Source of the DNA: an uncultured Mageeibacillus sp. | GTDB taxonomy: Bacteria > Bacillota > Clostridia > Saccharofermentanales > DTU023 | Direction of reading: 5' to 3' | NCBI GenBank assembly: GCA_964486135.1 | Contig: CAZAKT010000002.1 | Location: forward strand, 1-61,434 | Length of the DNA stretch: 61,434 bases | Shown: positions 9,725-29,570 of the stretch, one piece after another | How positions within the stretch are numbered: position 1 is the first letter of the stretch | How the letters are laid out: every line of letters starts with the position of its first letter | Made by a program: the position numbers and the translations under genes | Notes under the pieces: model-generated | Database searches by the model: none | What the model saw: only the letters and a program-made list of their open reading frames with translations | Told to the model about the DNA's origin: nothing

Positions 9725-10171
9725 ATGCTTACAAATGAAGTGAAGGTCAAGCTGGTGGCGGAAGCTTTCGAGGCACGAAAAAAGAGTTATTCCCCTTATT
9801 CCAGATTCAAGGTCGGCGCCGCTCTCCTGACTTCGGATGGCCGGATCTATAGGGGGGCCAATATCGAAAACGCTTCCTATGGCGCCACCATCTGCGCGGA
9901 GAGGACAGCGGCGGTCAAGGCTGTCTTCGCGGGTTCCAGGCAATTTGTCGCCCTGGCGGTCGTCGGCTCTGAACAGGAGGAGGGCGGAGACATAGACTAT
10001 GCCTATCCCTGTGGGATCTGCCGGCAGTTCCTGCGCGAATTCCTGCCGCCTTCGGGCGATATGGTCATCCTGGTGGCCCGGGGCCTTGAAGATTACAAGG
10101 AAACAAGCCTGAATGCCCTGCTGCCGCATTCATTCGGGCCATCTGATCTCGATTATCTGTATGAGTCTTAG
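9725..10171 (+). CDS. cdd: Cytidine deaminase
   Basis: SYSPYSRFKVGAAL, NIENASYG, CAERTA, PCGICRQ zinc motif. Confidence 0.96.
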   Translation: MLTNEVKVKLVAEAFEARKKSYSPYSRFKVGAALLTSDGRIYRGANIENASYGATICAERTAAVKAVFAGSRQFVALAVVGSEQEEGGDIDYAYPCGICRQFLREFLPPSGDMVILVARGLEDYKETSLNALLPHSFGPSDLDYLYES

Positions 10172-10259
10172 GAGGGGAGGACCGGTCCTGTAGGGCCGTT
10201 CATCAATAAATGAGGAAAGAATGGCCCTGACGGGTCATCAATAATCAGGAGGAAAACCT

Positions 10260-11300
10260 ATGAAAAAGAGACTATTCAGTCTAATTCTGGTTCTCGCCTT
10301 GCTTGTGACGCTGGGCGTCGCCTGCGGAACCAAGGATGACGGCGGAAAAACGGAAGGAAAAAAAGTTGCCCTGATCACCGACCTCGGTGGTATCAACGAT
10401 GAATCCTTCAACCAGTCCGCCTGGAACGGCATGAAACAGCTTGAGGAAGACGGCATCAACATCTCATTTGTTGAATCTGAGAAGGAAGCTGACTACGCCG
10501 TCAACTTCACCAACAAGACGGAGGAAGGCAACGACCTGGTCTGGGGTATCGGCTTCCTGATGGAGCAGTCCATCATCGATGCCTCCAAGGAGCACAAGGA
10601 CCAGATGTTCGCCATCGTCGACGCCGGCTTCCCCGAGGGGGAATACCCCAACCTGGTGGGCGCCATGTTCAATTCGGAAGAGTCCTCTTTCCTGGTCGGC
10701 TACATTGCGGGCCACGTGACGGAGACTGACCATGTCGGCTTTGTCCTGGGTATGGAGGGGGACGTCATGTTCCGCTTCCAGTACGGCTATCTGGCCGGTG
10801 TGGCCTATGCCGCGGATGAGCTGGGCAAGGAAATCAGGGTTGATGCCGTGACCATCGATACCTTTGGCGACACGGCCAAGGGCAAGGCCACCGCCACCAA
10901 GATGTTCAGCGATGGGGCTGACATCGTCTACCACGCGGCCGGCCAGGCCGGTTCCGGCTGCATCACGGCGGCCAAGGAAATGGGCAAGTGGGCCATTGGC
11001 GTCGATCTGGACCAGAATGAACTGGCTCCCGACAATGTCCTGACCTCTGCCTTGAAAAATGTTGACCAGGCCGTCTACCAGCTTTCCAAGAAGGTTCTGG
11101 AGGGCGAAGAGGTCGGTGGCAAGACCTTCTTCTTTGGCCTCAAGGAGGGTGGCGTAGGAATCGCGCCCAGCTCGGACAAACATGTCCCCAAGGAGATCCT
11201 GGACAAGACAGCGGAAATCGAGAAGATGATCGTCGATGGGGAGATCGAAGTTCCGATCACCGCCGACGAATTTGAAGCTTTCAAAGGCAAGCTCGGATAA
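10260..11300 (+). CDS. BMP-family nucleoside ABC transporter substrate-binding lipoprotein
   Basis: Lipobox GVAC, DLGGINDESFNQSAWNG, YHAAGQAGSG, IGVDLDQ, GLKEGGVG. Confidence 0.92.
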   Translation: MKKRLFSLILVLALLVTLGVACGTKDDGGKTEGKKVALITDLGGINDESFNQSAWNGMKQLEEDGINISFVESEKEADYAVNFTNKTEEGNDLVWGIGFLMEQSIIDASKEHKDQMFAIVDAGFPEGEYPNLVGAMFNSEESSFLVGYIAGHVTETDHVGFVLGMEGDVMFRFQYGYLAGVAYAADELGKEIRVDAVTIDTFGDTAKGKATATKMFSDGADIVYHAAGQAGSGCITAAKEMGKWAIGVDLDQNELAPDNVLTSALKNVDQAVYQLSKKVLEGEEVGGKTFFFGLKEGGVGIAPSSDKHVPKEILDKTAEIEKMIVDGEIEVPITADEFEAFKGKLG

Positions 11301-11393
11301 AACCAGGATGGCGGCCAGCCGCTGTCTTCTATGAAATGAGCGCCCGGACAGCCTTTCACGGGGTGTCCGGGTGACTCTTATGGAGAGTCAAGT

Positions 11394-13010
11394 ATGGAGC
11401 AGGACAAGCGGGTTCACCTTGAACCGTCCGACATCGCGGGAAGCGATGGGGAAGAGACAGCCCCGGTCCCCGGGCCTGATCAGGAGGAAGCTTCCAACTA
11501 CGCCGTAGAAATGTACGGCATATCCAAGTCCTTCGGGACGCTCAAGGCGCTCGACGAGGTTGATCTGGTCGTGCGCAAGGGGACCATCCACGCCCTGCTC
11601 GGTGAAAACGGGGCAGGCAAGTCGACGCTCATGAAAATCCTCTACGGACTTTACACCAAGGATACAGGCGAGATCAGGATCATGGGCCGGCCCGGGGACA
11701 TCAAAAATCCCAAGCAGGCCATCGACCAGGGAATCGGCATGGTCCACCAGCACTTCATGCTGGTCGAAAATATGACCATTGCCGAAAACATCGTGCTGGG
11801 GAGTGAAGTGACCAAATCCTTTGGCCGGCTCGACCGTGAACGGATGAACAGGAGCATCCGTGAATTCGGTGAGCAATACGGCCTGGAAGTCGATCCCCGT
11901 GAGCTCATCATGGATGTCTCCGTGGCCACCCAGCAGCGGGTGGAGATCCTGAAAGCTCTTTACAGGGGGGCCGATATCCTGATCCTGGATGAACCGACCG
12001 CGGTTCTGACCCCCCAGGAAATTGACAATCTGATTGTGACCATGCAGCGGCTGGTAAAAAGCGGCAAGACCGTCATAATCATTACCCATAAATTGAAGGA
12101 GATCATGGCCTCCTCCGAATACTGCACCATTATCCGGCGGGGCAAGGTGGTCGATACGGTCCGGGTCTCTGAGGTCACCGAGAAGGATCTGGCTTCCATG
12201 ATGGTTGGCCGGGAGGTCATGTTGACGACCGACAAGGAGAAAGCCAGTCCTGGCGAAATCATCATGGAAATCCGGGACCTGACTGTCAAGGACAACCGGG
12301 GTCTTGAAAAAGTCAAGGATCTTTCACTTCACGTGCGGAAGGGGGAGATCCTGGCGATCGCGGGAGTGGACGGCAACGGCCAGACGGAATTGATCGAGGC
12401 CATTACCGGGCTTCGGAAGGCTGAGGAGGGAGAGATCGTGGTCAACGGCCGGCACATCGAGAACGGCCTCCCCCTGGACGCCCACAAGGCCGGGATCAGA
12501 ACCATCCACGAGGACCGCCATAAGCGGGGCCTGGTCCTGGACTTCCTGGTCAGTGAAAACCTGATCCTTGAGTCCTACAAGCAAGAACGCTTCCAGGGAA
12601 AATGCGGCCTCCTCTCCTGGAAAAAGATAAATGAATATGCCAACGAGCAGATTGACCGCTTCGACATCCGGCCGTCCGGTTGCGCCCAGCAGCGGGCCAG
12701 CGAACTTTCCGGCGGCAACCAGCAGAAGGTCATCGTGGCGAGGACCATCGAACAGGAGCCGGATCTCCTGTTTGCCTGCCAGCCCACGCGGGGCTTGGAT
12801 GTGGGCGCCATAGAGTATGTCCGCAATGCCCTGGTCCAACAGCGGGATCAGGGCCGGGCTGTCCTTCTCATCTCCTATGAACTGGATGAGGTGCTTGACA
12901 TTGCCGACAGGATTAACGTGATCTACGATGGCAGTATCGTCGCGGATCTCGATCCGGAAGAGACGGATGAACAGGCCATCGGCCTCTTGATGGCGGGAGG
13001 TAGCCAATGA
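11394..13010 (+). CDS. Nucleoside ABC ATP-binding protein (tandem NBD, NupA/YufO-like)
   Basis: LLGENGAGKST, MVHQHF, ILDEPTAVLT, LSGGNQQK, QPTRGLDVGA. Confidence 0.93.
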   Translation: MEQDKRVHLEPSDIAGSDGEETAPVPGPDQEEASNYAVEMYGISKSFGTLKALDEVDLVVRKGTIHALLGENGAGKSTLMKILYGLYTKDTGEIRIMGRPGDIKNPKQAIDQGIGMVHQHFMLVENMTIAENIVLGSEVTKSFGRLDRERMNRSIREFGEQYGLEVDPRELIMDVSVATQQRVEILKALYRGADILILDEPTAVLTPQEIDNLIVTMQRLVKSGKTVIIITHKLKEIMASSEYCTIIRRGKVVDTVRVSEVTEKDLASMMVGREVMLTTDKEKASPGEIIMEIRDLTVKDNRGLEKVKDLSLHVRKGEILAIAGVDGNGQTELIEAITGLRKAEEGEIVVNGRHIENGLPLDAHKAGIRTIHEDRHKRGLVLDFLVSENLILESYKQERFQGKCGLLSWKKINEYANEQIDRFDIRPSGCAQQRASELSGGNQQKVIVARTIEQEPDLLFACQPTRGLDVGAIEYVRNALVQQRDQGRAVLLISYELDEVLDIADRINVIYDGSIVADLDPEETDEQAIGLLMAGGSQ

Positions 13011-14119
13011 GGAAATTCATCACCCGGGCCCTGAAAGAACCCTTCACCGCCATTCTGATCGCCCTCCTTATCGGTTTTATCATCGGCGCCCTCACCCTGG
13101 CTGTCGGCGGCTATGACCCCGGCCGGGGCTACGGCCTCCTGTTCACAGGGGTGTTCGCCAATACCCGCCGGGTCGCCCAGGTCTTTGTCAACGCCGTCCC
13201 CATCATCATGACCGGCCTTGCTGTGTCTTTTGCTGTCAGGACGGGCATGTTCAATATCGGGGCGGACGGCCAGTTCATCCTGGGCCAGGTCACCGGGGCC
13301 ATACTGGGTTACTATGTCCCCCTGCCCCCCATCCTCCATCCCCTCTTCATCATGCTTTGCGCTGTGGCGGTGGGTGGCCTCTACGGCGCCTTTGCCGCCT
13401 TCCTGAAGAACCGTTTCGGCATTCACGAGGTCATCTCCTCGATCATGCTCAACTGGATTGCCTACTATTTCATGAACTTCATCGTCAACATGAAAAACGT
13501 CAAGGTGCCCGGTACCCAGCATTCACCCGAAATCCTGGATTCGGCCAAGATCACCTTCTTCAGCCGGGATTTCCGGTCAACGGCTGAAGGGGAGGCCCTC
13601 CTGGCCAAACACCCCTGGCTCGAGAGCCTGGTCAGGACGGACGCGGGCTACGCCCTCCTGATCATGGTCGCGGTGACCCTCCTCCTCTGGATTGTCCTGA
13701 AATACACCAAGATCGGTTTTGAGCTGCGGGCTGTCGGTTACAACTACCATGCCGCAGAGTTTGCCGCCATGCCGGTCAAACGGAATGCCCTCCTGTCCAT
13801 GTTCATATCGGGGGGTACCGCTGCCCTGGGCGGGGCCATGCTGGTCATGTCCACCTCCTACTTCATCACCATGCTGGGGGCGACGGAGGGCTATGGCTGG
13901 GATGGGATCTCGGTGGCCCTGATCGCCGGCAATCATCCGATCGGCTGTATTTTCGCCGGTATTCTCTATTCGGCGCTCAAGATCGGAGGCACGGAGATCC
14001 AATCCAGGATGGGGGCCCCGACTGAAATCATCAACATCATGATCGGGGTGCTTGTCCTCTGTATCGCGTTCGCGCCCGCCCTGCCCCGGCTGGCGGAACG
14101 CTTGGAAAGGAAGGAGTAG
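13007..14119 (+). CDS. Nucleoside ABC permease (NupB-like)
   Basis: FNIGADGQ, HEVISSIMLN, GFELRAVG, GYGWDGISVAL. Confidence 0.92.
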   Translation: MRKFITRALKEPFTAILIALLIGFIIGALTLAVGGYDPGRGYGLLFTGVFANTRRVAQVFVNAVPIIMTGLAVSFAVRTGMFNIGADGQFILGQVTGAILGYYVPLPPILHPLFIMLCAVAVGGLYGAFAAFLKNRFGIHEVISSIMLNWIAYYFMNFIVNMKNVKVPGTQHSPEILDSAKITFFSRDFRSTAEGEALLAKHPWLESLVRTDAGYALLIMVAVTLLLWIVLKYTKIGFELRAVGYNYHAAEFAAMPVKRNALLSMFISGGTAALGGAMLVMSTSYFITMLGATEGYGWDGISVALIAGNHPIGCIFAGILYSALKIGGTEIQSRMGAPTEIINIMIGVLVLCIAFAPALPRLAERLERKE

Positions 14120-14122
14120 GCC

Positions 14123-15061
14123 ATGGGACTTCTTAACACCTTGCTTTTAACTGTCTCCATCAGCCTTATGTATTCGGCGCCCCTGATCTTCACGGCGCTG
14201 GGCGGAGTCATAACCCAGCGGGCGGGGGTTGACAACATCGGACTTGAGGGCATGATGGCCTTTGGCGCCTGCGGCGCCTCCTTCCTCTGTCATTTCACGG
14301 GGAGCCCCTGGATCGGCCTGGTGGTCGGCGCCCTCTTCGGCGCCAGCCTGGCCCTCCTCCACGCCTTCATCTCCGTTACCGCCAAGGGGAACCAGCTGAT
14401 CTCCGGCATCGCCATCAACTTCATCGGCCTGGGTGTGGGCGTTTTCCTGACCCGCTTCCTCTTCGAGGGCGCGGCCCAGTCGAATTCAACCATCAACCAG
14501 CCCCTGCCCAAGCTTCTTGAGTTGATCGGTATCGACAAGAGCAAGTCCCGCCTGCTCGAATCCTCGGAGATTGACATCACCGTCATCTTCGCCTTCCTCT
14601 TTGCCGTCCTGATCTGGTTTGTCCTCTACAAGACCAAGACCGGCCTCCGGGTCCGGGCCTGCGGCGAGCATCCGGGAGCCGCCGATACCCTGGGGGTCAA
14701 TGTTACCCGGATCCGCTACATCGCGACCATCCTGTCGGGTGTCCTGGCCGGATTAGGAGGAGCCGTGACCTCGCTTACGATCAGTTACCGCTTTACCCCT
14801 ACCGTTATTTCCGGCCAGGGCTTCATCGCCCTGGCGGCCGTCATCTTCGGCAATTGGAAGCCGATCGGCGCGACCCTGGCCTGCCTGCTCTTTGGCTTCG
14901 CCCAGGCCCTTACCGTGGTCATGGCCGGTATCCCCTGGCTGCCGACCCAGATCCTGGCCATGCTGCCCTATGCCCTGACCCTTTTGATCCTGGTCATCTT
15001 CGTCGAACGTTCGACGCCGCCCCGGGCTCTGGGACAGCCTTACTTCAAGGGCCAGGCCTAG
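14123..15061 (+). CDS. Nucleoside ABC permease (NupC-like)
   Basis: NIGLEGMM, GLRVRACGEHP, GQGFIALAAVIFGNW, LPY. Confidence 0.92.
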   Translation: MGLLNTLLLTVSISLMYSAPLIFTALGGVITQRAGVDNIGLEGMMAFGACGASFLCHFTGSPWIGLVVGALFGASLALLHAFISVTAKGNQLISGIAINFIGLGVGVFLTRFLFEGAAQSNSTINQPLPKLLELIGIDKSKSRLLESSEIDITVIFAFLFAVLIWFVLYKTKTGLRVRACGEHPGAADTLGVNVTRIRYIATILSGVLAGLGGAVTSLTISYRFTPTVISGQGFIALAAVIFGNWKPIGATLACLLFGFAQALTVVMAGIPWLPTQILAMLPYALTLLILVIFVERSTPPRALGQPYFKGQA

Positions 15062-15070
15062 GGACTGCCC

Positions 15071-16048
15071 ATGCCGTTGGAGGGAGCGCGAAAGGGGGCT
15101 TGGCTTGTCGCCGGAGGATTGAACCTGGATATCCTGGCCAAATCCAGGGACAGCTTCAGCCTCTATGATTCCAACCCCGGCAGCATACTGGAAAGACCGG
15201 GTGGCGTCGGCTTCAATATCGCCCGCAACCTGGCCCTGCTCGGGGAGCCGGTCCGCTTCCTGACGGCCCGTGGACGGGACAGGGCGGGGGAGGCCCTCTT
15301 CCTGGCCGCCCGGGAAGGAGGCCTGGACCTCTCCCTGGCCCTGGTCCGGGAGTCCTTTCCCAGCGCCCGCTACCTTGCCATCCACGACCAGACGGGAGAC
15401 ATGGTGGCCGCCATCAACGATATGTCCCTCTTTGACAGCCTGACGGCGGATGACATTGAAGCCTGGTTTGACCCGGGGCAGGGGGGACGGGAAGATCCTC
15501 CGGCCTTCTCCGGGGCCTTTCTTGAAGCCAACCTGTCCGAGCCGGTTCTCCGGGAGCTGGCCTTCCGCTGGGACCTGCCACTTTTCGCCGACGCCGTCTC
15601 CCTGGCCAAGATGGACAGGCTCAAGCCCCTCCTCCCCCGTCTGACCGGTTTCAAGCTCAACCGCCTGGAGGCCGGACAGCTCACAGGCCTGGCGGGAAGG
15701 GACAGGGCGGAGGCCGTGAAGGTGGCGCAGGAAATCGTGGCCAGGGGGGTCAAGCGGGTCTGTCTCTCACTCGACATCGACGGGGCCCTTTTTACCGATG
15801 GCTGGCTGACGGTCCACGCCCGGCCCGCCCGCATCGTCCACGAGGCCAATACGACCGGGGCCGGCGATGCCATGGCGGCAGCCTTTGCCTGGGCGACCGC
15901 CCAGGCTTATGATCTATATGAAACGGCCCGCCTCGGTATTGCGGCGGCCTCCCTGACGGTGGAGTCCACAGAGGCCGTAAATCCAGCCCTGACCCTGGAA
16001 GCTCTCAAGACCAGAGCCGCCAGGATAGAAGTCGAGGAAGTCAAATGA
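15071..16048 (+). CDS. psuK: PfkB-family kinase, likely pseudouridine kinase
   Basis: GGLNLD, GGVGFNIARNLALLG, NTTGAGDA; overlaps psuG. Confidence 0.78.
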   Translation: MPLEGARKGAWLVAGGLNLDILAKSRDSFSLYDSNPGSILERPGGVGFNIARNLALLGEPVRFLTARGRDRAGEALFLAAREGGLDLSLALVRESFPSARYLAIHDQTGDMVAAINDMSLFDSLTADDIEAWFDPGQGGREDPPAFSGAFLEANLSEPVLRELAFRWDLPLFADAVSLAKMDRLKPLLPRLTGFKLNRLEAGQLTGLAGRDRAEAVKVAQEIVARGVKRVCLSLDIDGALFTDGWLTVHARPARIVHEANTTGAGDAMAAAFAWATAQAYDLYETARLGIAAASLTVESTEAVNPALTLEALKTRAARIEVEEVK

Positions 16049-16977
16049 GCAAGTTGAAGCAATACCTGTCCATAGCCGGGGAGGTGGAGGCAGCCTTGGC
16101 GGCTGGCCTGCCTGTCGTCGCCCTCGAATCGACCATCATTTCGCACGGCATGCCCTACCCTGAGAATGTGAGGACTGCCCTGGCGGTCGAGCGGGTAATC
16201 CGGGAGGGCGGCGCCCAAGCGGCCACCATCGCCCTTTTGGATGGCCGGATCAAGGTGGGGCTGACCCCGGAGGAGATCGACAGGATCGGCAGGGGGGGGA
16301 AGGCCGTCATCAAGACCTCGAGGCGGGATATGCCCTATGTGCTGGCCCAGGGCCTGCCGGGGGCCACCACGGTCGCCGGCACCCTGATCGCCGCCCAGCT
16401 GGCCGGCATTTCCTTTTTTGCTACGGGCGGGATTGGCGGTGTTCATCGCGGGGCAGAAAAGACCATGGATGTATCCGCTGATCTGGTCGAACTCCAGAAG
16501 ACGCCGGTCGCCGTCATCTGTTCGGGGGCCAAGTCAATTCTGGCGATTGACCTGACCCTGGAATACCTGGAGACGGGCGGTGTGCCCGTGATCGGCTACG
16601 GGACGGATGAAATGCCGGCCTTCTATACACGCGGGAGTGGTCATAAGCTGGTCATGCGGGCCGACGATCCCCGGACGGCCGCCCGGATTTTTGCCGCCTC
16701 GCGGGCCCTGGGTTTCCCGGGTGGCCTGGTGATAGCCAACCCCATCCCCCTGGAAGCGGCCCTGGACCCCACCCTGATCCAGGAGGCGATTGACCAGGCC
16801 CTGGCAGAGGCCGGGGAGCGGGGGATCGGGGGCAAGGAGGTGACCCCCTTCCTGCTTGAGCGGGTCGCTGAGCGGACCGGCGGGGCCAGCCTCGAAGCCA
16901 ATATTGCCCTTGTCCTCAACAATGCCCGTGTCGCCGCCGACATCGCTTCCGCCTACGCGGATTTGCTGAGAGAATAG
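16045..16977 (+). CDS. psuG: Pseudouridine-5'-phosphate glycosidase
   Basis: VVALESTIISHGMPYPEN, ATTVAGT, FATGGIGGVHRG, DVSADL, GKEVTPFLL. Confidence 0.95.
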   Translation: MSKLKQYLSIAGEVEAALAAGLPVVALESTIISHGMPYPENVRTALAVERVIREGGAQAATIALLDGRIKVGLTPEEIDRIGRGGKAVIKTSRRDMPYVLAQGLPGATTVAGTLIAAQLAGISFFATGGIGGVHRGAEKTMDVSADLVELQKTPVAVICSGAKSILAIDLTLEYLETGGVPVIGYGTDEMPAFYTRGSGHKLVMRADDPRTAARIFAASRALGFPGGLVIANPIPLEAALDPTLIQEAIDQALAEAGERGIGGKEVTPFLLERVAERTGGASLEANIALVLNNARVAADIASAYADLLRE

Positions 16978-16996
16978 ACTGTCAGGAGATCGGAAA

Positions 16997-17767
16997 ATGG
17001 AAAAACTCTATCACATACAACTTGATGATTCACACAAGGCCCAATATGCCATCCTGCCAGGGGATCCCGGCCGGGTCGAGAAGATTGCGGCCCTCCTGGA
17101 CCAACCGGTCCTTCTCGGCGTCAACCGCGAATACACCAGCTGGCTGGGATCGCTTGAGGGGGAGCCGGTCCTGGTCATGTCAACCGGCATGGGGGGGCCC
17201 TCAACCGCCATCGGGGTGGAAGAGCTCTATATGACGGGGGTAAGGAATTTCATCCGGGTCGGCACCTGCGGCGGCATGCATCTGGATGTCCAGGGCGGGG
17301 ACCTGGTCATAGCGACCGGGGCCATCCGTATGGAGGGCACGACCCGTGAGTACCTGCCGATCGAGTTCCCGGCCGTGGCCGACTTCGAATTGACAGGCTG
17401 TCTGGCGGAGGCGGCCCGGTCGGTCGGCTACCGCTTCCATACCGGCGTTGTCCAGTGCAAGGACTCCTTCTACGGCCAGCATTCCCCCCAACGTATGCCG
17501 GTCAGTTATGAGCTGGAGAACAAGTGGCAGGCCTGGCTCAAGGCCGGGACCCTGGCTTCCGAGATGGAGAGCGCCGCCCTCTATATCGTCTGCCAGTCCC
17601 TGGGGGCCAAAGCCGCCTGCGTCCTCAATACCATCTGGAACCAGGAGCGGCGAGCCCGGGGCCTGGACGACGCTGAAAGCCATGACACCCTGCGGGGGAT
17701 CCGGGTCGCGGTCGAGGGGATCCGGCAACACATACTGAAAAATAGGGGCAAGGGCAGGGCCCTTTAA
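16997..17767 (+). CDS. udp: Uridine phosphorylase
   Basis: ILPGDPGRV, NREY, STGMGGPS, IRVGTCG, DSFYGQ, EMES. Confidence 0.92.
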   Translation: MEKLYHIQLDDSHKAQYAILPGDPGRVEKIAALLDQPVLLGVNREYTSWLGSLEGEPVLVMSTGMGGPSTAIGVEELYMTGVRNFIRVGTCGGMHLDVQGGDLVIATGAIRMEGTTREYLPIEFPAVADFELTGCLAEAARSVGYRFHTGVVQCKDSFYGQHSPQRMPVSYELENKWQAWLKAGTLASEMESAALYIVCQSLGAKAACVLNTIWNQERRARGLDDAESHDTLRGIRVAVEGIRQHILKNRGKGRAL

Positions 17768-17769
17768 GC

Positions 17770-19053
17770 TTATGCCAGGCCTGTCGGCTTCCCCGCCTGT
17801 CGGGAGCGGACCAGGATCCCGTCCTTGAAGACCTTCTCAACCTGATTCATGGCGAAATGGTAGGAAAGGTGGCCGTGATTGGGGCAGTCAAGGACCAGCA
17901 GATCGGCCTTCTTTCCGGCTTCAAGTGAACCCCGGCTTGCCGCCCGGCTGACAGCGGCGGCGGCGTTCAGGGTGACAGCGGTCAGGGTCTCCGCCAGGGT
18001 CAGGTCCATATAGAGGGTCGCGAGCGCGATCAGGAGGGGGACGGACTGTGAATAGCAACTGCCCGGGTTGAGGTCGGTGCCCAGGGCGACAGCCAGGCCC
18101 TTGTCGATCATGAAACGGGCCCGGGCGTAGGGCTCCTTCAGGCTAAAGGCCGTCAGGGGCAGGAGGGTGGCGATCACACCGGCCTCCCGCAGGGCCAGGA
18201 GATCCTGGTCGCAAGCCTTGAGCAGGTGGTCGGCGCTCACGGCGCCCAGCCTGGCCGCCAGTCCGGTGCCCCCCAGGGGGAAGATCTCGTCAGCGTGCAT
18301 CTTGAGTTTGAAGCCTTCTTTTTGGGCTGCCCTGAGCAGGCGTTCGGATTCCTCGAGCTCAAAGACATTCTTTTCAGTAAAAATATCACAGAATTCAGCC
18401 CGGCCCCGGGCCATGGGCAAGCCCTCGGAGATCAGATAATCGATGTAGTCGCCTGTTCTTCCCTTGAAGGCCGGTGGGAGCGCATGGGCCCCCATATAGG
18501 TCAGGACGATGTCGACCGGATGATCCCGGTTCAGGCGCTCCATTACCCGGAGGAGCTTGTCCTCGGTCCGGGTGTCCTCCCCATAGCCGGTTTTTCCCTC
18601 CACCGTTGTGATGCCCAGGTCCAGCATGCGGTCCAGCCTCTTCCAGCCGGCTTCATAGAGCTCATCTTCCGAAGCCTCCCGGCTGGCCTGGTTGGTCGAG
18701 GCGATCCCGCCCCCCGCCTCCATGATCTCCATATAGGAGGCGCCTTGCAGCCGGAGCTGGAACTCCCGGTCCCGGTAGCCCCCGAAGACAAAATGGGTGT
18801 GGGGATCGACGAAGCCGGGGATGACAGTCTTCCCCCGGGCCTCCAGCCGGTCAAGGACAGCGCCCTCCGGAAGCTTTTCTCCCAGCCAGGCCTCGGCCTC
18901 AGCGCTGGTCCCCACGAAGAGGAGGATGCCCTCCTTCCAGATAAGGGCCCCGTCGGGGGTGATCAAAAGTTCCTTCATTGCCTGACCGGCCTGGGCCATT
19001 GTGCCCAGGGGGGTTGCCAGTTCGGCGGCGTGCTCGAGCAAAGTGTAGGTCAT
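17770..19053 (-). CDS. hutI: Imidazolonepropionase
   Basis: PGFVDPHTH, GITTVEGKTGYG, GAHA, MHADEI, SADHL, GTDLNPG. Confidence 0.94.
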   Translation of the reverse strand: MTYTLLEHAAELATPLGTMAQAGQAMKELLITPDGALIWKEGILLFVGTSAEAEAWLGEKLPEGAVLDRLEARGKTVIPGFVDPHTHFVFGGYRDREFQLRLQGASYMEIMEAGGGIASTNQASREASEDELYEAGWKRLDRMLDLGITTVEGKTGYGEDTRTEDKLLRVMERLNRDHPVDIVLTYMGAHALPPAFKGRTGDYIDYLISEGLPMARGRAEFCDIFTEKNVFELEESERLLRAAQKEGFKLKMHADEIFPLGGTGLAARLGAVSADHLLKACDQDLLALREAGVIATLLPLTAFSLKEPYARARFMIDKGLAVALGTDLNPGSCYSQSVPLLIALATLYMDLTLAETLTAVTLNAAAAVSRAASRGSLEAGKKADLLVLDCPNHGHLSYHFAMNQVEKVFKDGILVRSRQAGKPTGLA

Positions 19054-19055
19054 GG

Positions 19056-19472
19056 TCAGTCTCCTCGCAGCGCATGGGCCCGGCGGTTTTTCAGCTCTTC
19101 CATAAAGCGGTCATTGTCCCGGGCCGAGACATATAAATACTGGCCGTCATAGAGCTCCAGGGAGATCCGGTCCAGGGAGGTGGCCAGGGAAGAAATCGGA
19201 TTTTTTGTCCGGCCGACGGACCGGATCTCCCGGTAGGGGATTCTCTTGGTTACGGGTCCAAAGCGGAGGAGGAGGGTCTCCTCTTCCAGGGTCAGGTCAT
19301 TGCGGAACTGGATGGACAGGACGAAAAAAAGAGTCAGGGCCATTAAGGTCGCGCTGACCGTGCTGACCAGGCCGGGATCCTTGAAGGCAGCCAGGGCGGA
19401 GAAGGCTGTGGCCACTAAGATGGCCAGGACTACCAGGTACCACCATAAGGCTCGTTTGCCGGTGAAGGTCAT
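19056..19472 (-). CDS. Small membrane protein with a bacterial PH-like domain
   Basis: Two N-terminal TM helices, then RIPYREIRSV...SLDRISL...YVSARDNDRFMEEL; coupled to both neighbours. Confidence 0.7.
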   Translation of the reverse strand: MTFTGKRALWWYLVVLAILVATAFSALAAFKDPGLVSTVSATLMALTLFFVLSIQFRNDLTLEEETLLLRFGPVTKRIPYREIRSVGRTKNPISSLATSLDRISLELYDGQYLYVSARDNDRFMEELKNRRAHALRGD

Positions 19473-20647
19473 GCTCCCTCTTCCGCGATCAGGCTGTCGT
19501 AGACCAGCTTCATCCGTTGGAGTGAGGCCAGGAGAAGCTGGCGGGCACAGGCCAGGTTGACCCGCTCAAAGCCCCGGCCACCCTCGCCAAAGATATAGCC
19601 CTCGTCAAGATAGAGCCATCTGTCGATCATGCCTTGCTCCAGCCGTTCGTGGTCCCGGCAGACAGCGCGGAAGTCCAGCCAGGCCAGGTAGGTGCCCTCC
19701 AGATCAAAGACCCCCACCCGGGGCATCTGGTCCTGTATGAAGGTCTTGAGCGCCCTGTAGTTGTCCTGGACATAGACCAGCATGGCCTGGTACCAGTCAT
19801 CACAGGCGGTGTAAGCCATCTCCGCAGCGGCAAAGCCGAAGCTGCTGTGGGTGTGGACGCCGTCAGTCCGGACCCGGTCGGCAAAGATTTCCCTGTCTTT
19901 TGAGTCCTCGACCACAATGCTGGCGACTCCCAAGCCGGCCAGGGAAAAGGTCTTGCTGGCGGAAAAAGCGACCAGATGCCGGGTGCCGTGCTTCCGGGCC
20001 AAGCGGCTGAAAACGCAGTGTTCCTTCCCGAAGGTGAAATCGCAATGGATCTCATCGGAGATGACAAAGACGTCATATTTTACGGCCAGGCGGGCCATCT
20101 CATCCAGCTCCCACTCGTCCCAGACGCGGCTGACGGGGTTGTGGGGACTGCAGAGGATGAAGAGCCTCGATTGACTGATCTTCCGCTCGAAATCCTCAAA
20201 ATCGATGACATAGGCCCCCTCCCTGATCCTGAGTTCCTGGGTGACCAGGGTCCTTTGATTCTGTTCGATCGCGCGGAAGAAGGGATAGTAGACGGGAGTC
20301 TGGATCAGGACCTTGTCCCCCTTGTCCGAAAAGGCCCTGACAGCGGCATAGACAGCCTGTACGACACCTGTCGCCGGAACGATCCAGTCTTTTTCGACCG
20401 GGAAGCCGTGATGGAGGGAGTACCAGCGGTTGACCGCCTCATAATAATCCGGCCGGGGCCCGGTATAGCCCCAAATCCCTTCCTCAGCCAGGTCCTTCAA
20501 TCTTTCCCGGATGCAGGCGGGACTTCTGAACTCCATGTCAGCCACGGAGAGGGGGATGATATGTTGTCCGGGATCGACCGGGCCCGGGGCCTGGTCCCAT
20601 TTCATGGATCCGGTATTCCGGCGGTCGATGATCTCATCAAAATTCAT
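19469..20647 (-). CDS. MalY/PatB-family PLP enzyme (cystathionine beta-lyase-like C-S lyase)
   Basis: LSVADMEF, WGYT, LCSPHNP, SDEIH, PLP-lysine SASKTFSLAGL, EGTYLAWLD. Confidence 0.9.
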   Translation of the reverse strand: MNFDEIIDRRNTGSMKWDQAPGPVDPGQHIIPLSVADMEFRSPACIRERLKDLAEEGIWGYTGPRPDYYEAVNRWYSLHHGFPVEKDWIVPATGVVQAVYAAVRAFSDKGDKVLIQTPVYYPFFRAIEQNQRTLVTQELRIREGAYVIDFEDFERKISQSRLFILCSPHNPVSRVWDEWELDEMARLAVKYDVFVISDEIHCDFTFGKEHCVFSRLARKHGTRHLVAFSASKTFSLAGLGVASIVVEDSKDREIFADRVRTDGVHTHSSFGFAAAEMAYTACDDWYQAMLVYVQDNYRALKTFIQDQMPRVGVFDLEGTYLAWLDFRAVCRDHERLEQGMIDRWLYLDEGYIFGEGGRGFERVNLACARQLLLASLQRMKLVYDSLIAEEGA

Positions 20648-20664
20648 AGCCTATTCCCCAAGCC

Positions 20665-21573
20665 TCAGTCGTCCAGCAGCCAGTGTTCGATGATTTTGCT
20701 ATCATCAAAGCCGTGAAGGCCCAGATAGTATTCAAGGGACTCAGTCAAGGCGGCCAGGGGGGCCAGGCCGATGATCTCGCTTCCCAGGACCGGGACCCCG
20801 TAGCGGGCCGCCTCCATGCGGACCGTCTCAAAGACACGGTAGATGGGGGTTTTCCGATAGTCGGTGATGTTCATGGTCACCTGGACCAGGCCCTTTTCCT
20901 TCAGCTCGACGCCGCCGGCCTTGATTGCCTGAAAGCCGCCTCCGGACTGGCGGATGGCCCGGGCGATCCGGTCCGCGATCTCCAGCCTGTCCGTCCCCAG
21001 GTCAATGTTGTAGGCGATCAGGGGGAAGCGGGCCCCAACCGCCGTGACTCCGGCTGTGGGGTGGATCCTCCTATCGCCGTAGTCAGGCTCCCATTCGGGG
21101 AGAAGGAGTTTTTCCGGCATACCCTCGAACTGACCCCGGCGGATCTTCGCCAGGTTGACCCGTTCCGGCCGGGAGGCCGAGTCCTCGTAGAGGAAGACAG
21201 GGATGCCGTAGCGGATGTTGATCTCACTGGCCAGGGACTTGGACAGGTCAACGGCCTCCTCCACCGTCATATTCCTTATTGGGATCAGGGGGACGACATC
21301 GGTGGCCCCCATGCGCAGATGTTCCCCTTCATGCCGGTTCAGGTCGATCTTTTCAGTGGCTACGCCCACCGCGTCCAGGACAGCTTCCTTGACCGCCTCC
21401 GGCTCACCGAGCAGGGTGACGACCAGCCGGTTGTAGTCGGGGTCGGCCTCGTAGTTGACCAGCCTCACCCCTTCCCGCTTCTTCAGGGGGGCGACGATGG
21501 CTTCAATGCTATCCTTGTCGCGGCCCTCGCTGAAGTTGGGGACACATTCGACAATGGGCAGTCCTTGGGTCAT
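20665..21573 (-). CDS. ftcD: Glutamate formimidoyltransferase
   Basis: ECVPNFSEGRD, DPDYNR, HLRMGATDVVP, RFPLIAYNI, QVTMNITDY. Confidence 0.93.
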   Translation of the reverse strand: MTQGLPIVECVPNFSEGRDKDSIEAIVAPLKKREGVRLVNYEADPDYNRLVVTLLGEPEAVKEAVLDAVGVATEKIDLNRHEGEHLRMGATDVVPLIPIRNMTVEEAVDLSKSLASEINIRYGIPVFLYEDSASRPERVNLAKIRRGQFEGMPEKLLLPEWEPDYGDRRIHPTAGVTAVGARFPLIAYNIDLGTDRLEIADRIARAIRQSGGGFQAIKAGGVELKEKGLVQVTMNITDYRKTPIYRVFETVRMEAARYGVPVLGSEIIGLAPLAALTESLEYYLGLHGFDDSKIIEHWLLDD

Positions 21574-23600
21574 GACATATTCTCCTCGCTAGCCTGGCGG
21601 AGGGTGGCCTCGACCAGATCATCGTCGGCAAGATAGGGGAGGGTCAGCCGGTCGCGGCCCCCCATCTGCCTGTTATAGGCCCTGGCCGTCTCGATGGCAT
21701 TTTCATTCCTGGCCCAGGCCCGGCGGGCGACCCCTGCCATGACATCCCAGGGAACGGCGTTTCGCAGCACCTCATCGATCCGCTCGGAACCGTCGAGGAC
21801 GCAGCCGAAGCCGCCATTGATCGCCTTGCCAATGCCGGTGCCACCCCCGTTATGGAGGGCGCAAAGGCTCATGCCCCGGGCCGCGTTCCCGGCGAAGACA
21901 GAGGTGGCCATATCGGCTGTCACCTGACTGCCGTCATAGATATTGGAGCTTTCGCGGAAGGGTGAATCCGTACCTCCCGTGTCGTGGTGGTCGCGCCCGA
22001 TCATGACCGGGCCGATCAGGCCCTGGCGGACCATCTCATTGAATTTCAAGGCCATATTCATGCGGCCATGCGCGTCACTATAGAGGATCCGGGCCTTGGT
22101 GCCGACCACCAGCCTGTTCTGCTCCGCGTCGCGGATCCAGTTGTAGTTGTCCCGATCCTGGTAGCGGCGGTCGGGGTCGATGCAGGAGAGGGCAGCCTGG
22201 TCGGTCAGCTTGAGATCCTGCTCCTTGCCTGACAGGCAAACCCAGCGGAAGGGGCCGTAGCCAAAATCGAAGAGGAGGGGGCCCATAATATCCTCAACAT
22301 AAGAGGGCCAGATAAATCCGTCCCGGTCGTTCTCGCCGTTCTTTGAAATCTCCCTGACCCCTGAGTCGAAAATGGCCTTCATGAAGGAGTTGCCGTAGTC
22401 GAAGAAATAGCTTCCCTCTTCCGTAAGCTTTCTTATGGCCTGGAAGTGAGCTTTGAGGGAGCGGTCAACCGCTTCCCTGAAGGCGGCCGGATCCTGGGCC
22501 AGGAGCCGGGTTCTTTCCTCGAAGGACAGGCCCTGGGGGCAATAGCCTCCTGTGTAGGGCTCGTGGCAGGAGGTCTGGTCGGACAGGAGATCGATGGGGA
22601 AGGCCGTCTTAATCGCGTATTCCAGGAGGTCAACCACATTGCCGGAATAGGCGATGGCCAGGGCCTCTCTCCTGGCCAGGGCCTCCTCTGCCTTTTCGAA
22701 GGCCTCGGGACAGGACTGGGCGACCAGATCGATCCAGCCCTGGTCCAACCGGGTCTGAATCCGGGAGGCATCCACCTCGGCCACGATGGAGACGCCGCCC
22801 GCGATCTTACAGGCCTTGCCCTGGGCGCCCGACATGCCGCCAAGTCCCGAACTGACAAAGAGGCGGCCGGCCAGATTGCCGTCAGGGGCAATGCCCAGCC
22901 GCATGCGACCGGCATTGAGCAGGGTATTATAGGTCCCGTGGACGATACCCTGGGGGCCAATATACATCCAGCCCCCCGCAGTCATCTGTCCGTAGTTGGA
23001 AACTCCCATGGAAGCGGCCCGGTTGAAGTCGTCGGGGTTGTCATACTGGCCGATCATAAGGCCATTGGTCAGGATAACCCGGGGGGCGCTGATCTGGCTG
23101 TGGAAGAGGCCGACCGGGTGGCCGGAGAAGAGGACCAGGGTCTGCTCCCCGGTCAGGAGTTCAAGGTATTGCTTGATCAGACGGTATTGCATCCAGTTCT
23201 GGCAGACAGCGCCCGTCTCTCCATAGGTGATCAGTTCGTAGGGGTAGAGGGCCACCTCAAAGTCCAGATTGTTGTCGATCATAACCTGGAAGGCCTTGCC
23301 CTCAACGCAGTTGCCCTTGTAGTCCTGGATCGGTCTGCCATAGATCCTGCCGGGCGGCCGGAAACGGTAGCCATATATTTTTCCGTGTTGGTCGAGTTCC
23401 TTCAGGAATTCAGGGGCCAGTTCCGCATGATAGGCTTCCGGGACATAGCGGAGCGCGTTTTTCAGGGCGGTGGCCCTCTCCTTGTGAGAGAGCTTTGCCT
23501 CGCGTTTGGGTGCCCGCCGGATACCCGCCTCAAAGGTGGGATAGGGCGGCAGCGGGCCCTGGAGTGTGGCCGTCAGATCCGGCCTTGCTTCGTCTTTCAT
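21570..23600 (-). CDS. hutU: Urocanate hydratase, long (676-aa) form
   Basis: YGQMTAGGW, IGPQGIVHGT, GLGGMSGAQ, SDQTSCH, GPFRW, GRDHHD, HNGGG; GGAGG RBS before ATG 23600. Confidence 0.95.
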   Translation of the reverse strand: MKDEARPDLTATLQGPLPPYPTFEAGIRRAPKREAKLSHKERATALKNALRYVPEAYHAELAPEFLKELDQHGKIYGYRFRPPGRIYGRPIQDYKGNCVEGKAFQVMIDNNLDFEVALYPYELITYGETGAVCQNWMQYRLIKQYLELLTGEQTLVLFSGHPVGLFHSQISAPRVILTNGLMIGQYDNPDDFNRAASMGVSNYGQMTAGGWMYIGPQGIVHGTYNTLLNAGRMRLGIAPDGNLAGRLFVSSGLGGMSGAQGKACKIAGGVSIVAEVDASRIQTRLDQGWIDLVAQSCPEAFEKAEEALARREALAIAYSGNVVDLLEYAIKTAFPIDLLSDQTSCHEPYTGGYCPQGLSFEERTRLLAQDPAAFREAVDRSLKAHFQAIRKLTEEGSYFFDYGNSFMKAIFDSGVREISKNGENDRDGFIWPSYVEDIMGPLLFDFGYGPFRWVCLSGKEQDLKLTDQAALSCIDPDRRYQDRDNYNWIRDAEQNRLVVGTKARILYSDAHGRMNMALKFNEMVRQGLIGPVMIGRDHHDTGGTDSPFRESSNIYDGSQVTADMATSVFAGNAARGMSLCALHNGGGTGIGKAINGGFGCVLDGSERIDEVLRNAVPWDVMAGVARRAWARNENAIETARAYNRQMGGRDRLTLPYLADDDLVEATLRQASEENMS

Positions 23601-23642
23601 AAGGCCCTCCTTTCCTTTCACCATGGCTGTTTCAAGTATACT

Positions 23643-23656
23643 ATCCTTTAAAGGAT
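23643..23656. promoter_or_regulatory. Perfect 14-bp palindrome between divergent hutU and ROK genes (candidate operator)
   Basis: ATCCTTTAAAGGAT, adjacent to a minus-strand TATACT (-10-like) at 23635-23640. Confidence 0.45.
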
Positions 23657-23680
23657 TGTTCAGCCGGGAGGTGGAGAGCC

Positions 23681-24731: not shown

Positions 24732-25826
24732 GTGGACCCGATTTTAGCCGCTCTTGAACAAGCTCTCGAAGAAAAACAGGATACCGTTCTGGCGACTGTC
24801 ATCGCCAGCTCAGGCGCGACACCCCGGGGAGAGGGGGCCAGGATGCTGGTGGGAAGTGAGGACCGACTGGCGGGAACAGTCGGCGGAGGGGCCGTTGAAT
24901 TGCGGTCGATCCAAATCGCCCGGGAAGCCATCCGGGAGAGACGGTCCAACATCCATCACTTTATCCTGACCAAAAACCAGATAGAAGATATCGGTATGAT
25001 CTGCGGTGGCAACGCCACTGTCCACTATCTCTTCCTGGAAGCTGGGGATGAGGAGCTCCTGCGGACCGTCAAGGCCGCCCGGGAGGCCATCTCCAGGCGT
25101 CAGCCCAGCTGGCTCCTGACGGATATAAGCCAGGAGAATCAGCTGGGCCTGGCCCTTTTCACAGCCCCTGAGGGGGCCAACCCGGCCGCTCCTGATTTTG
25201 ATAGGGAGGGCTGGCTTTTCACCGGCTTCCCCCCCGATCATAAATGCACCAAGGCCCTCCTGGAGGAGCCTGGACTCCTCTGCCAGCGTGGACGGACCAT
25301 CGAAAGTTGCGGCCATAGCTTTTTTGTGGAGGAATTGGTGGTGCCGGGCCTGGTCTATCTTTTTGGCGGCGGTCACGTGGGCCAGGCCCTGACCCCTGTC
25401 CTGGCCCGGGCCCATTTCGCCGTCCTTGTCCTGGATGACCGGCCTGAGTTCACGGATCCCTGTCTCTTCCCCGGCGCCTATGATGTCCGGCTCTGTGACC
25501 TTGACCAGATTGATCGCTCTGTCTCCATCGGTCCCGAGGATTATGTCTGTGTCATGACGCGGGGCCACAGCAAGGACCTGGAGGTGACTGACCAGGTCCT
25601 GAAGACACCCGCCCGTTATATCGGGGTGATAGGCAGCCGTCACAAACTGGCCACCGTAGACAGACTCCTGACAGAGCGTGGCCAGAGCAAGGCGCAGCTC
25701 GAGCGCATAGTTTCCCCCATCGGCCTTGACATAGGGGGGGAGACACCGGAGGAAATCGCGATCAGTATCGCGGCCCAGATGATCGCGGTGCGATCGGGAA
25801 AACTCCAGGCCAGAAGAAAGCTCTAG
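24732..25826 (+). CDS. xdhC: XdhC/CoxI-family molybdenum-cofactor maturation protein
   Basis: GATPRGEGARM, GTVGGGAVE, GMICGG, FGGGHVG, MTRGH, YIGVIGS, SPIGLDIGGETPEEIAISI. Confidence 0.9.
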   Translation: MDPILAALEQALEEKQDTVLATVIASSGATPRGEGARMLVGSEDRLAGTVGGGAVELRSIQIAREAIRERRSNIHHFILTKNQIEDIGMICGGNATVHYLFLEAGDEELLRTVKAAREAISRRQPSWLLTDISQENQLGLALFTAPEGANPAAPDFDREGWLFTGFPPDHKCTKALLEEPGLLCQRGRTIESCGHSFFVEELVVPGLVYLFGGGHVGQALTPVLARAHFAVLVLDDRPEFTDPCLFPGAYDVRLCDLDQIDRSVSIGPEDYVCVMTRGHSKDLEVTDQVLKTPARYIGVIGSRHKLATVDRLLTERGQSKAQLERIVSPIGLDIGGETPEEIAISIAAQMIAVRSGKLQARRKL

Positions 25827-25836
25827 ACAAGCGGTC

Positions 25837-27630
25837 ATGGAAGCTTTTTCTGAAAGACTGTCATTCGCCTATCCGGCCGATGAGCGCCAGCTCCTTGCCT
25901 TTGTCAGGTCAAGCTTGGAAGGTCCGGAAAGGCGGCCCCTCCTTCTGACGGGGGCCATAGGTTCGGGAAAATCTACCTTTGTCCAGCACCTGATTGATGA
26001 CCTGGGGGCCGTACCGGCCGGCTATATGACCATCCGCCATATCGATGCCGATGAGAGACGCCAGTGTTTCACACATGTGCCCGCCGGCAATCAGCGGGGG
26101 ACCGGCTTCCTGACGGTCAGACACCATGAGGGCGACAGCTTCCCTGAGGGAAGCTGTTTTCTTATGGCGGACGGTCAAGGCCGCCATTTCGACCTGGACC
26201 GCTTCGACCGGTCGGTATCCCCCCTGATCGACCGGCCGGGGACCCTGCTGGTCCTGGATGAGCTGGGGGGCGACGAGCTCCTGCTGGACAACTTCTACCG
26301 GAAAATCCTCGATTTGCTGGGAGATAGGTCAAGATCAATCATCGTGGTATGGAAGAACGATGTCTCCTTTGAAAGGTCGGTCGGCCGTTCATCCCTGGCA
26401 GAAGAGGAAAAGGACTTGATCAGGGAACGCCGGCAATCCATCGTGTCGCATCCCGGCCTGGTCCAGGTCGAACTCTTGAACGGAGGCCAATCCCTGGCGC
26501 ACGAGAGGCGGACCCGGTGGGGGAGCGCCGCCGCTCCGGCTCCCCTCCCGGTCCAGGGAGTTTCGGCCTCTGCACAGGAAGAAAGGGGTCTGGCCCCGCA
26601 AAAGGCTGAAGGCCGGCCCAGGCGCATGTCGCTCCGCTTCGCCATCCTCTTTATCCTGCTCCTGGCAATCATCACGGTCTCCTTCGCGGTCGGTTGGTAT
26701 GGCATCAGTCCCGCGACCATCCTTCGATTTTTCTGGAGCCAGCTCTTCCGGACGGGTGAAAGCTTCGCGACCGAAATCCATACCGTCCTGATCAATGTCC
26801 GCCTGCCCCGCATCGTCCTTGGCCTCCTGGTCGGGGCCGGGCTTTCCGTCGCGGGACACAGCTTCCAGGGTGTATTCCAAAACCCCATGGCCTCTCCCGA
26901 TGTCCTGGGAGCCTCATCGGGCGCTGGATTTGGCGCCGCCCTGGCCATCCTCTGGGGGCTTCCCTCCACGGGAATAACCTTGTTTTCCTTCTTCTTCGGC
27001 CTGCTCTCCATCGTCCTGGTCCTCTTTCTGACCTCCCTGGTCAGGGCGCAAAGGGTCCTGGCCCTGATTTTGACAGGGATCGTGGTCGGCTCACTCTTCT
27101 CAGCCGGTCTTTCATTCATCAAGCTGGTGGCGGACCCCCATGACCAACTGCCCGCCATCACCTACTGGCTCATGGGCTCCCTTAATTCATCCCAGGTGAA
27201 ACAACTCTCCTTTGCCGGACCCCTGATCCTGGGTGGCCTCCTGCTCATTCTTCTCCTTCGCTGGCAACTCAATGTCCTTATGGCCGGTGAGGAGGCTGCC
27301 CAGGCCATGGGGGTAAGGACTCGGCTTCTTCGGATCATCCTGATCCTGGCGGCCACCCTGGTGACGGCAACCGCCGTCTCTGTCAGCGGGGTGATCGGCT
27401 GGGTAGGCCTGGTCGTCCCCCACATCGCCCGTATGATCACAGGGGCCGACAACCGCTATTCCCTGCCGGCCTCCGCCCTCATCGGTGCCGGCTTTTTGAT
27501 CTTTGTCGATGATATCGCCCGGCGGGCGACGACGAGCGGGATCCCGCTCGGTATCCTGACCGCTTTTATCGGCGCGCCCTTTTTCATCTACCTGATCCTC
27601 CACCAGGGACGGAAGGAAGGGGCCATCTGA
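25837..27630 (+). CDS. Fusion: NTPase_1/THEP1-like P-loop NTPase + FecCD/BtuC-family ABC permease
   Basis: One uninterrupted 597-aa ORF. It has Walker A GAIGSGKST and Walker B LLVLDELG, an Ala/Pro linker, then permease motifs VRLPR, QGVFQNPMASPDVLG, GEEAAQAMG and GWVGLVVPH. Confidence 0.85.
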   Translation: MEAFSERLSFAYPADERQLLAFVRSSLEGPERRPLLLTGAIGSGKSTFVQHLIDDLGAVPAGYMTIRHIDADERRQCFTHVPAGNQRGTGFLTVRHHEGDSFPEGSCFLMADGQGRHFDLDRFDRSVSPLIDRPGTLLVLDELGGDELLLDNFYRKILDLLGDRSRSIIVVWKNDVSFERSVGRSSLAEEEKDLIRERRQSIVSHPGLVQVELLNGGQSLAHERRTRWGSAAAPAPLPVQGVSASAQEERGLAPQKAEGRPRRMSLRFAILFILLLAIITVSFAVGWYGISPATILRFFWSQLFRTGESFATEIHTVLINVRLPRIVLGLLVGAGLSVAGHSFQGVFQNPMASPDVLGASSGAGFGAALAILWGLPSTGITLFSFFFGLLSIVLVLFLTSLVRAQRVLALILTGIVVGSLFSAGLSFIKLVADPHDQLPAITYWLMGSLNSSQVKQLSFAGPLILGGLLLILLLRWQLNVLMAGEEAAQAMGVRTRLLRIILILAATLVTATAVSVSGVIGWVGLVVPHIARMITGADNRYSLPASALIGAGFLIFVDDIARRATTSGIPLGILTAFIGAPFFIYLILHQGRKEGAI

Positions 27631-28448
27631 TGGACAGGCGACCGGTAATGACGAAGGGAATCGAGGTGGAGGGCCTTTCCTTCCGCTACAGGGCCGAGCC
27701 CGTCCTGACCGATCTGTCCTTCCAGGCTGGGGGCGGTCGGGCCATCGGGGTGCTGGGCGCCAACGGGGCCGGCAAGTCGACCCTCTTCAAACTGATCCTG
27801 GGCATCCTCCCCCTCCAGGAGGGGGGGATCCGGGTCAACGGTAATCCCCTTACCGAACTTTCAGTCAAGAAAAGGGCCCTGGAAATGGCCTATATCCCAC
27901 AGACGGAAACCGGCAGTTTCTCTTTTTCCGTCGAGGAGGTTGTCCTAATGGGAACGACAGCCAGCTTCGGTATGTTCTCGCAACCGGGAAGAAAAGAGAG
28001 GGAGAGGGTGGAAAAGGCCTTGGCCCTGATGAAGATCGAGTCTTTCAGGGACAGGCGCTATGACCAGCTTTCCGGCGGCGAGCAGCAGCTGGTCCTGATA
28101 GCCCGGGCAGTCGCCCAGGACGCCCCCATCCTGATCATGGATGAGCCCTGTGGCAGCCTGGACTACGGCAATCAGATCCGGGTCCTGGAGCAGATCCGCA
28201 GCCTGGCCGACCAGGGCTACCTGGTCCTCTTCTCGACCCATAACCCCCAACAGGTCTTCCTCTACGCGGACGACGTGCTTCTTATCAGCGGCCACACGGC
28301 CTACGCCTACGGCCCGCCCCACGAAGTTCTTTCCGAGTCCCTGCTCACCCATGTCTATGGTATCCCCATCCGATTGGAGGAAAGTGCCCGGACAGGTGAT
28401 GTCACTGTCCTGCCCGATTTCATTAAAATCCGGCAAAATCGTAAATAG
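27630..28448 (+). CDS. Class III metal-chelate/oxyanion ABC ATP-binding protein (FecE/MolC-like)
   Basis: GANGAGKST, AYIPQ, LSGGEQQ, IMDEP, STHNP. Confidence 0.9.
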   Translation: MDRRPVMTKGIEVEGLSFRYRAEPVLTDLSFQAGGGRAIGVLGANGAGKSTLFKLILGILPLQEGGIRVNGNPLTELSVKKRALEMAYIPQTETGSFSFSVEEVVLMGTTASFGMFSQPGRKERERVEKALALMKIESFRDRRYDQLSGGEQQLVLIARAVAQDAPILIMDEPCGSLDYGNQIRVLEQIRSLADQGYLVLFSTHNPQQVFLYADDVLLISGHTAYAYGPPHEVLSESLLTHVYGIPIRLEESARTGDVTVLPDFIKIRQNRK

Positions 28449-28457
28449 GAGAAATTT

Positions 28458-29570
28458 ATGAAAGCCAAATCGAAGAAAGCAATCACCCTCATCCTGTCGC
28501 TGATCCTCCTCCTGACAGCCCTCACAGCCTGTAGTCCTGAGACACCCGCTCCTCAGCCGGGAGAGACGGGGGAACCCACCGAGTCAGAAGAGGAGACGAG
28601 CGCAATTTTCCAGGATTCGGTCGGCCGGGAGGTCGAACTCCCCCTGCCCCTGACCCGGATAGCGCCCTCAGGCACCCTGGCGGACATTGTCCTTTACACG
28701 GCCTGTCCCGATCTCCTCTGTGGGATTTCCATCCCCTTCACGGAGACTCAACTTAAGCTGATCGACCCGAAATATGACGAATTACCCGTTATGGGCAAGT
28801 TCTACGGCAAGGGCCCGGACTTCAACCTGGAGACAGTACTTGCGGCCCAAACACAGGTGATCGTGGATATCGGGGAGCCCAAGGACTCGATTGAGGATGA
28901 TCTGGATGAGCTCATGGACCAGATCAAGGTCCCCACCGTCTTCATCGAGGCCCTTTTTGATGATATGCCGGGGACCTACCGGACCATCGGCCGCCTGATC
29001 GGGGATCAGTCGCGTACGGATCTGCTTGCCGAATACTGTGAGGAGACCCTGGCCCTGGTCCGCAAGGCCGGTGAGGAAATCCCGGAGGAGGATAGGGTCC
29101 GTGTCTACTGGGCCATGGGCGAGCTGGGGCTCAATACCAACGCGGTTGGATCCTTCCACAGTGAACTGCTCGACTACATCCCCGTCGTCAATGTCGCGGA
29201 AGTTGAAGTCGCCAACCGGGGAGGGGGGAGCGAGGTATCCATGGAGCAGATCATCCTTTGGGATCCCGACTACATCCTCATTGATACCCTGGCCCTGGCC
29301 GGGGAGATTCTGGATGACCCCGCCTGGCAGTCATTGCCGGCCATAAAAGAGGGGCGCTATCAGGTGGTTCCCACCCAGCCCTATGGTTTTCTGGCCAACC
29401 CGCCCTCGATCAACCGTTATCTGGGGATGCGCTGGCTGGGGACTTTGCTCTATCCGGAGATCTACACGGCTGAAACAGAGGACGAGGTCAGGGACTTCTT
29501 CTCACTTTTCTACAGGATTGAACTGGATGACAGCCAGCTTGAGGCCATCCTCGACGGCACATTCAATTAA
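28458..29570 (+). CDS. Class III (TroA/FecB/MolA-like) ABC substrate-binding lipoprotein
   Basis: Lipobox LTAC, EQIILWDPDYI, W-x-S-LPAIKEGR, PPSINRYLGMRWL. Confidence 0.85.
   Translation: MKAKSKKAITLILSLILLLTALTACSPETPAPQPGETGEPTESEEETSAIFQDSVGREVELPLPLTRIAPSGTLADIVLYTACPDLLCGISIPFTETQLKLIDPKYDELPVMGKFYGKGPDFNLETVLAAQTQVIVDIGEPKDSIEDDLDELMDQIKVPTVFIEALFDDMPGTYRTIGRLIGDQSRTDLLAEYCEETLALVRKAGEEIPEEDRVRVYWAMGELGLNTNAVGSFHSELLDYIPVVNVAEVEVANRGGGSEVSMEQIILWDPDYILIDTLALAGEILDDPAWQSLPAIKEGRYQVVPTQPYGFLANPPSINRYLGMRWLGTLLYPEIYTAETEDEVRDFFSLFYRIELDDSQLEAILDGTFN

Follow-up and report, generated by a model that had tools for sequence, protein, structure and literature searches.

Anaerobic Bacillota break down histidine through a folate-dependent Hut pathway built from the HutH, long-type HutU, HutI, FtcD, FTCD_C and Fhs families. 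FtcD requires a formimino group, and a 2-thio-imidazole yields none unless it is desulfurized first. Ergothioneine catabolism, which runs through ergothionase and a thiourocanate hydratase or desulfurase, has the urocanase and aromatic-lyase folds in common with the host genes described below; ergothionases lack the Ala-Ser-Gly (ASG) motif, and reductive removal of sulfur from thiourocanate has been reported for anaerobes (bioRxiv 10.64898/2026.04.22.720169). The MalY/PatB lyases, among them T. denticola cystalysin, B. subtilis PatB and E. coli MalY, form a separate system. PatB enzymes act both as cystathionine beta-lyases and as cysteine desulfhydrases, have a broad range and accept varied cysteine S-conjugates (PMC11203769). 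Our search of the literature for PatB together with hut enzymes, or for DTU023 with histidine, returned nothing relevant.

The window, a stretch of 61,434 nucleotides, is contig C2 of a 1.55-Mb genome (92.8% complete) whose close relatives are digester MAGs, including 'Clostridiales bacterium DTU023'. All six Hut families are found in this genome. Unlike in the standard folate-dependent pathway, the genes lie in two loci, and two extra genes stand between ftcD and hutI. In the ORF list, the minus strand carries hutU-ftcD-patB-bPH_4-hutI, running from 23600 to 17770. An earlier note on this DNA had described a tightly coupled five-gene run, and all five ORFs are present, as are both ATGA overlaps (hutU/ftcD at 21570-21573, patB/bPH_4 at 19469-19472) and the 2-nt gap between the bPH_4 gene and hutI; ftcD and patB are spaced by 17 nt. 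The first gene, hutU (21570..23600), encodes a long-type urocanate hydratase of ~676 aa (TIGR01228, 427/375; paired figures are score and cut-off in bits on curated NCBIfam or Pfam models). Its ORF can be extended to 23624, and the likely start is 23600, with GGAGG upstream. The ftcD gene (20665..21573) encodes the transferase half only of glutamate formiminotransferase (TIGR02024, 396/221; PF07837 and PF02971), and patB (19469..20647) a PLP-dependent beta C-S lyase of the MalY/PatB/cystalysin family (TIGR04350, 387/340). The bPH_4 gene (19056..19472) follows, encoding a 138-aa protein with a hydrophobic N-terminal half and the bPH_4 domain behind it (PF06713, 54/23, E=1e-14). Imidazolonepropionase, with its metal-binding motifs present, is encoded by hutI (17770..19053; TIGR01224, 425/298). 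Thus all four enzymes score above the curated NCBIfam cut-offs.

A candidate sigma-70 promoter for the operon lies on the minus strand at 23635..23662, within the 80-nt gap to a divergent ROK gene. It matches 9 of 12 consensus positions and is weak, as 4 sites of such quality occur where 2.2 are expected. A terminator scan gave nothing beyond chance level. Downstream, 2 nt lie between the hutI stop and the end of a nucleoside uptake and salvage run (9725-17767), and no terminator was called in that gap; the genes of the run, named from the ORF sequences, encode a cytidine deaminase, a BMP lipoprotein, an ABC transporter, a PfkB kinase, a pseudouridine glycosidase-like protein and a uridine phosphorylase-like protein. 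On the other side, positions 24732-29570 hold xdhC, then an NTPase-FecCD permease fusion, an ABC ATPase and a binding protein. The xdhC gene is divergent from hutU in the host genus and its sister genus. In two genomes (G046 and G051), a gene of the M16C presequence-protease type follows hutI (L039:12380-15265 and L045:657-3551).

The earlier note had found neither hutH nor a cyclodeaminase gene. This holds for the window but not for the genome: a genome-wide search placed both on contig C11, adjoining one another between recN and rny, one copy each. The hutH gene (C11:16653-18188; TIGR01225, 663/539) encodes an MIO-type histidine ammonia-lyase with ASG at 149-151 and the Ser-His (SH) loop; against P. 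putida HAL the enzyme reaches 398 bits, against the ergothionase 6s7j 247; the cyclodeaminase gene (C11:18210-18848) matches FTCD_C. Fhs is encoded on C18. With MIO-type HutH, a urocanase bearing the catalytic motifs, HutI, FtcD, cyclodeaminase and Fhs all found, each Hut step has a gene. Of 65 genomes in the family, 49 were found to have hutU and 48 to have hutH, and both genes are present in the identical eight genera and absent from the identical two. In five other genera, hutH-ftcD-hutI-cyclodeaminase lie together behind recN, with hutU mostly elsewhere. In the host genus and its sister genus, only hutH-cyclodeaminase stands behind recN, and ftcD-hutI is placed behind hutU. The recN-hutH-cyclodeaminase run was seen in all 21 other genomes of the genus examined for it, some interrupted by contig ends, and in five genomes of the sister genus. 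The split of the Hut genes into two loci is common to both genera.

PatB appears to be an unremarkable member of its family. Its nearest structure is cystalysin 1c7n (320 bits), the PLP-lysine is intact, and the GYT, VYYP, SDEIH, SKTF and ERVN motifs align with those of cystalysin; together with the TIGR04350 score, these PLP-site motifs place it among the PatB/MalY beta C-S lyases. Compared with those lyases, it would differ in gene position only, while forming a distinct clade. It is the only PatB of the host genome. The codon use of patB resembles that of its neighbors (GC3 0.76 against 0.77-0.81), and recent horizontal arrival was rejected on this ground. A search of the host genome returned no methionine synthase and no MetB/MetC-type gene, which makes the breakdown of cysteine or cystine the likelier role. 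PatB is most likely the general cysteine/cystine desulfhydrase of the cell, with no action on imidazoles. For a peptide fermenter, a transcript shared with other genes of amino-acid breakdown would be fitting, and this may account for the retention of patB in the operon without shared chemistry.

Within the genus, 14 of 23 genomes carry a hut-embedded patB, always behind ftcD and, where the contig continues, ahead of hutI (of the 14, two are split over contig ends and a third is truncated at one). The PH gene stands directly behind patB in 11 of the 14, is absent from three, and was seen nowhere else in the family. Searching metagenomes with the PH alignment gave five close relatives, and the one inspected lies in the same operon. 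Eight other genomes of the genus carry a different PatB lineage beside an MBOAT/DHHW pair, and in one (G044) no PatB of either kind was found. None of the 23 has both. The two kinds share a median identity of 39%, compared with 68% within the hut-PatB clade and about 80% for HutU. An AU test rejects a common clade of the two (p=0.004), and the tree groups the MBOAT-locus PatB with PatBs from other genera of the family. The genome G000 still has the MBOAT locus, but patB is missing from it; on its contig C6 (L211:6984-8177), the place that PatB takes in sister species is filled by a malic-enzyme-like gene (so named from sequence), a peroxiredoxin-like ORF and a Fur/PerR-like gene.

On a housekeeping tree, 12 of the hut-PatB genomes form one clade with support 1.0. 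G048 falls outside it with weak support, a placement that makes gain plus transfer indistinguishable from early gain with losses; G032, which had no data for this tree, groups with G045 on the hut tree. Since kin are not independent, the hut-embedded patB reflects one or two events, not fourteen. No donor was identified, as the nearest PatBs (G059/G060, 46%) join on long branches. The ftcD-hutI junction tolerates insertions: in G040 (L047:7710-10716) and G038 (L048:9070-12196) it holds an opine dehydrogenase gene and a gene for a 645-aa protein without a Pfam or NCBIfam match at the thresholds used. The median identity of 68%, the matching codon use and the tight coupling indicate that the patB insertion is old and has been kept, possibly through selection for co-expression, a point that counts against the hitch-hiking reading preferred below.

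Outside the family, we surveyed 60 hutU loci from other Bacillota families, a sample and not a census. The patB gene is coupled to hut genes in none of them. At three loci from two independent lineages, PatB lies within ~9 kb of hutU, against a rough chance expectation of ~0.5 (P ~0.1 for two independent cases). In one genus (G398/G328), a hutU standing alone has patB on the other strand at a distance of 4-5 kb; in one distant genome, patB follows hutI at 1.3 kb, separated from it by a gap of 350 nt and an unrelated gene. Conversely, no hut or PH match appeared in the fetched flanks (<=6 kb a side) of the 71 most closely related PatB loci from outside the family. Genus g7 seemed to offer a second link between patB and hutU, which we rejected because patB is there part of a divergent run, peptidase S41-nitroreductase-patB, that G022 carries without hutU. 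The conserved patB-hut linkage on which the earlier note had made its proposal depend is thus confined to part of one genus.

We consider it highly probable that the window encodes canonical folate-dependent histidine catabolism, joined by a patB-PH cassette that replaced an older PatB and hitch-hikes on the hut transcript. From the gene identities, positions, distribution and trees described above, we infer the activities, co-transcription and order of events as follows. HutH would make urocanate, which HutU and HutI would convert to formiminoglutamate; FtcD would pass the formimino group to THF, the cyclodeaminase would then free ammonia, and Fhs could recover formate and ATP. The cassette would then have entered the ftcD-hutI junction in one part of the genus, and the hut PatB would have taken over from the older PatB of the MBOAT/DHHW locus. 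Co-transcribed with the hut genes and not acting on imidazoles, PatB would release pyruvate, ammonia, and H2S or a thiol. The fallback of the earlier note, PatB as a possible mere passenger, agrees with the data. Its main speculation, an operon for sulfur-substituted imidazoles or free urocanate, is not supported, given hutH on C11 and a patB-hut link restricted to part of the genus, two of the three outcomes that the note itself had named as refuting; on the third, a HutU acting only on urocanate, the sequence evidence consists of the failed thiourocanate-hydratase models and the unchanged active-site motifs described below. What we find is a known pathway, a known enzyme family and a local gene rearrangement, with nothing pointing to a new sulfur-imidazole pathway. 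The locus is a small, clean example of operon shuffling and PatB lineage replacement in a genus from anaerobic digesters, and points to the gene that may provide sulfide from cysteine in these bacteria.

It is very improbable that the operon breaks down ergothioneine or thiourocanate. HutU and the thiourocanate hydratases do belong to one fold family, xdhC lies near hutU, four xanthine-oxidase-family (Mo) enzymes occur in the genome, and anaerobic reductive desulfurization is on record. None of the four Mo enzymes is on the hut contig, however, and without such prior desulfurization a 2-thio-imidazole would leave FtcD with no formimino group to transfer. HutU, the only urocanase-family gene found in the host genome, has 6uek as its best solved relative (603 bits) and fails the thiourocanate and S-methyl-thiourocanate hydratase models widely (NF058530, 302/930; NF058531, 351/880), short of both cut-offs by about 530-630 bits. 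We aligned HutU, FtcD, HutI and HutH from three groups: genomes with the PatB link, their PatB-free relatives, and ~20 hutH-containing operons from other families. In HutU, Y134, Q213, T215, M264, R460 and the HHD motif are invariant across all compared groups, and compared with the complete hut operons of other families the protein is 62-69% identical, with like motifs. No PatB-linked change was seen in the active-site motifs of any of the four enzymes; the columns specific to the PatB-linked group (one in HutU, none in FtcD, three in HutI, one in HutH) are all variable elsewhere. HutU is, to all appearances, an ordinary long-form urocanase. In the 92.8% complete genome, neither an ergothionase nor an OpuAC-type binding protein was found, and the single PF00221 gene carries the ASG that ergothionases lack.

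It seems to us just as improbable that the operon serves HutH-independent scavenging of urocanate that is free in the community. The hutH gene is indeed unlinked, in a housekeeping run behind recN, and separate regulation of the two halves is possible; yet hutH co-occurs with hutU across the family, the operon has no transporter, and hutU without nearby hutH is common, with hutH not within ~9 kb at 23 of the 60 outside loci (15 of the 49 long loci). Somewhat less remote, though still unlikely, is that PatB is retained for cleaving cysteine-urocanate or other S-cysteinyl-imidazole conjugates, thereby freeing a pathway substrate or detoxifying adducts. Cysteine-urocanate adducts occur in mammalian skin and urine, PatB enzymes are permissive toward cysteine S-conjugates, the coupling is tight and long-lived in 14 genomes, and one distant genome has patB shortly past hutI. 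Against this, the hut PatB and an unlinked PatB replace each other one for one, the pathway also operates in sister lineages that have no hut patB, the three nearby cases among the 60 outside loci (two lineages against ~0.5 expected, P ~0.1) include none that is coupled, and no hut gene lies in the fetched flanks of the 71 closest relatives outside the family. Beta-elimination would also be expected to yield a thiol, not urocanate itself. We accordingly give little credence to a hut PatB clade specialized on imidazole cysteine conjugates that, with the PH membrane protein, adds a thiol-adduct salvage branch to histidine catabolism; if PatB did act on such conjugates, this would be a new branch of that pathway. 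Canonical histidine catabolism with a hitch-hiking cassette remains the preferred reading.

Urocanase-like genes of another kind were seen at other loci. On a 12.9-kb contig (L053, G039:C26), a second hut-like cluster has hutH-ftcD-cyclodeaminase divergent from a short urocanase-like gene, along with hutI, an M20 amidohydrolase and an APC transporter. The short gene scores 629/880 on the S-methyl-thiourocanate model and 601/375 on the hutU model, and its best structure match is 7ned by a small margin. The cluster may handle a modified histidine; it could also be a binning contaminant. Several hut operons of other Bacillota (L227, L229, L231 and L234) have, beside a long-type hutU, one or two additional short genes of urocanase-like sequence (28-37% identity to the host HutU), which are candidate modified-urocanate hydratases.
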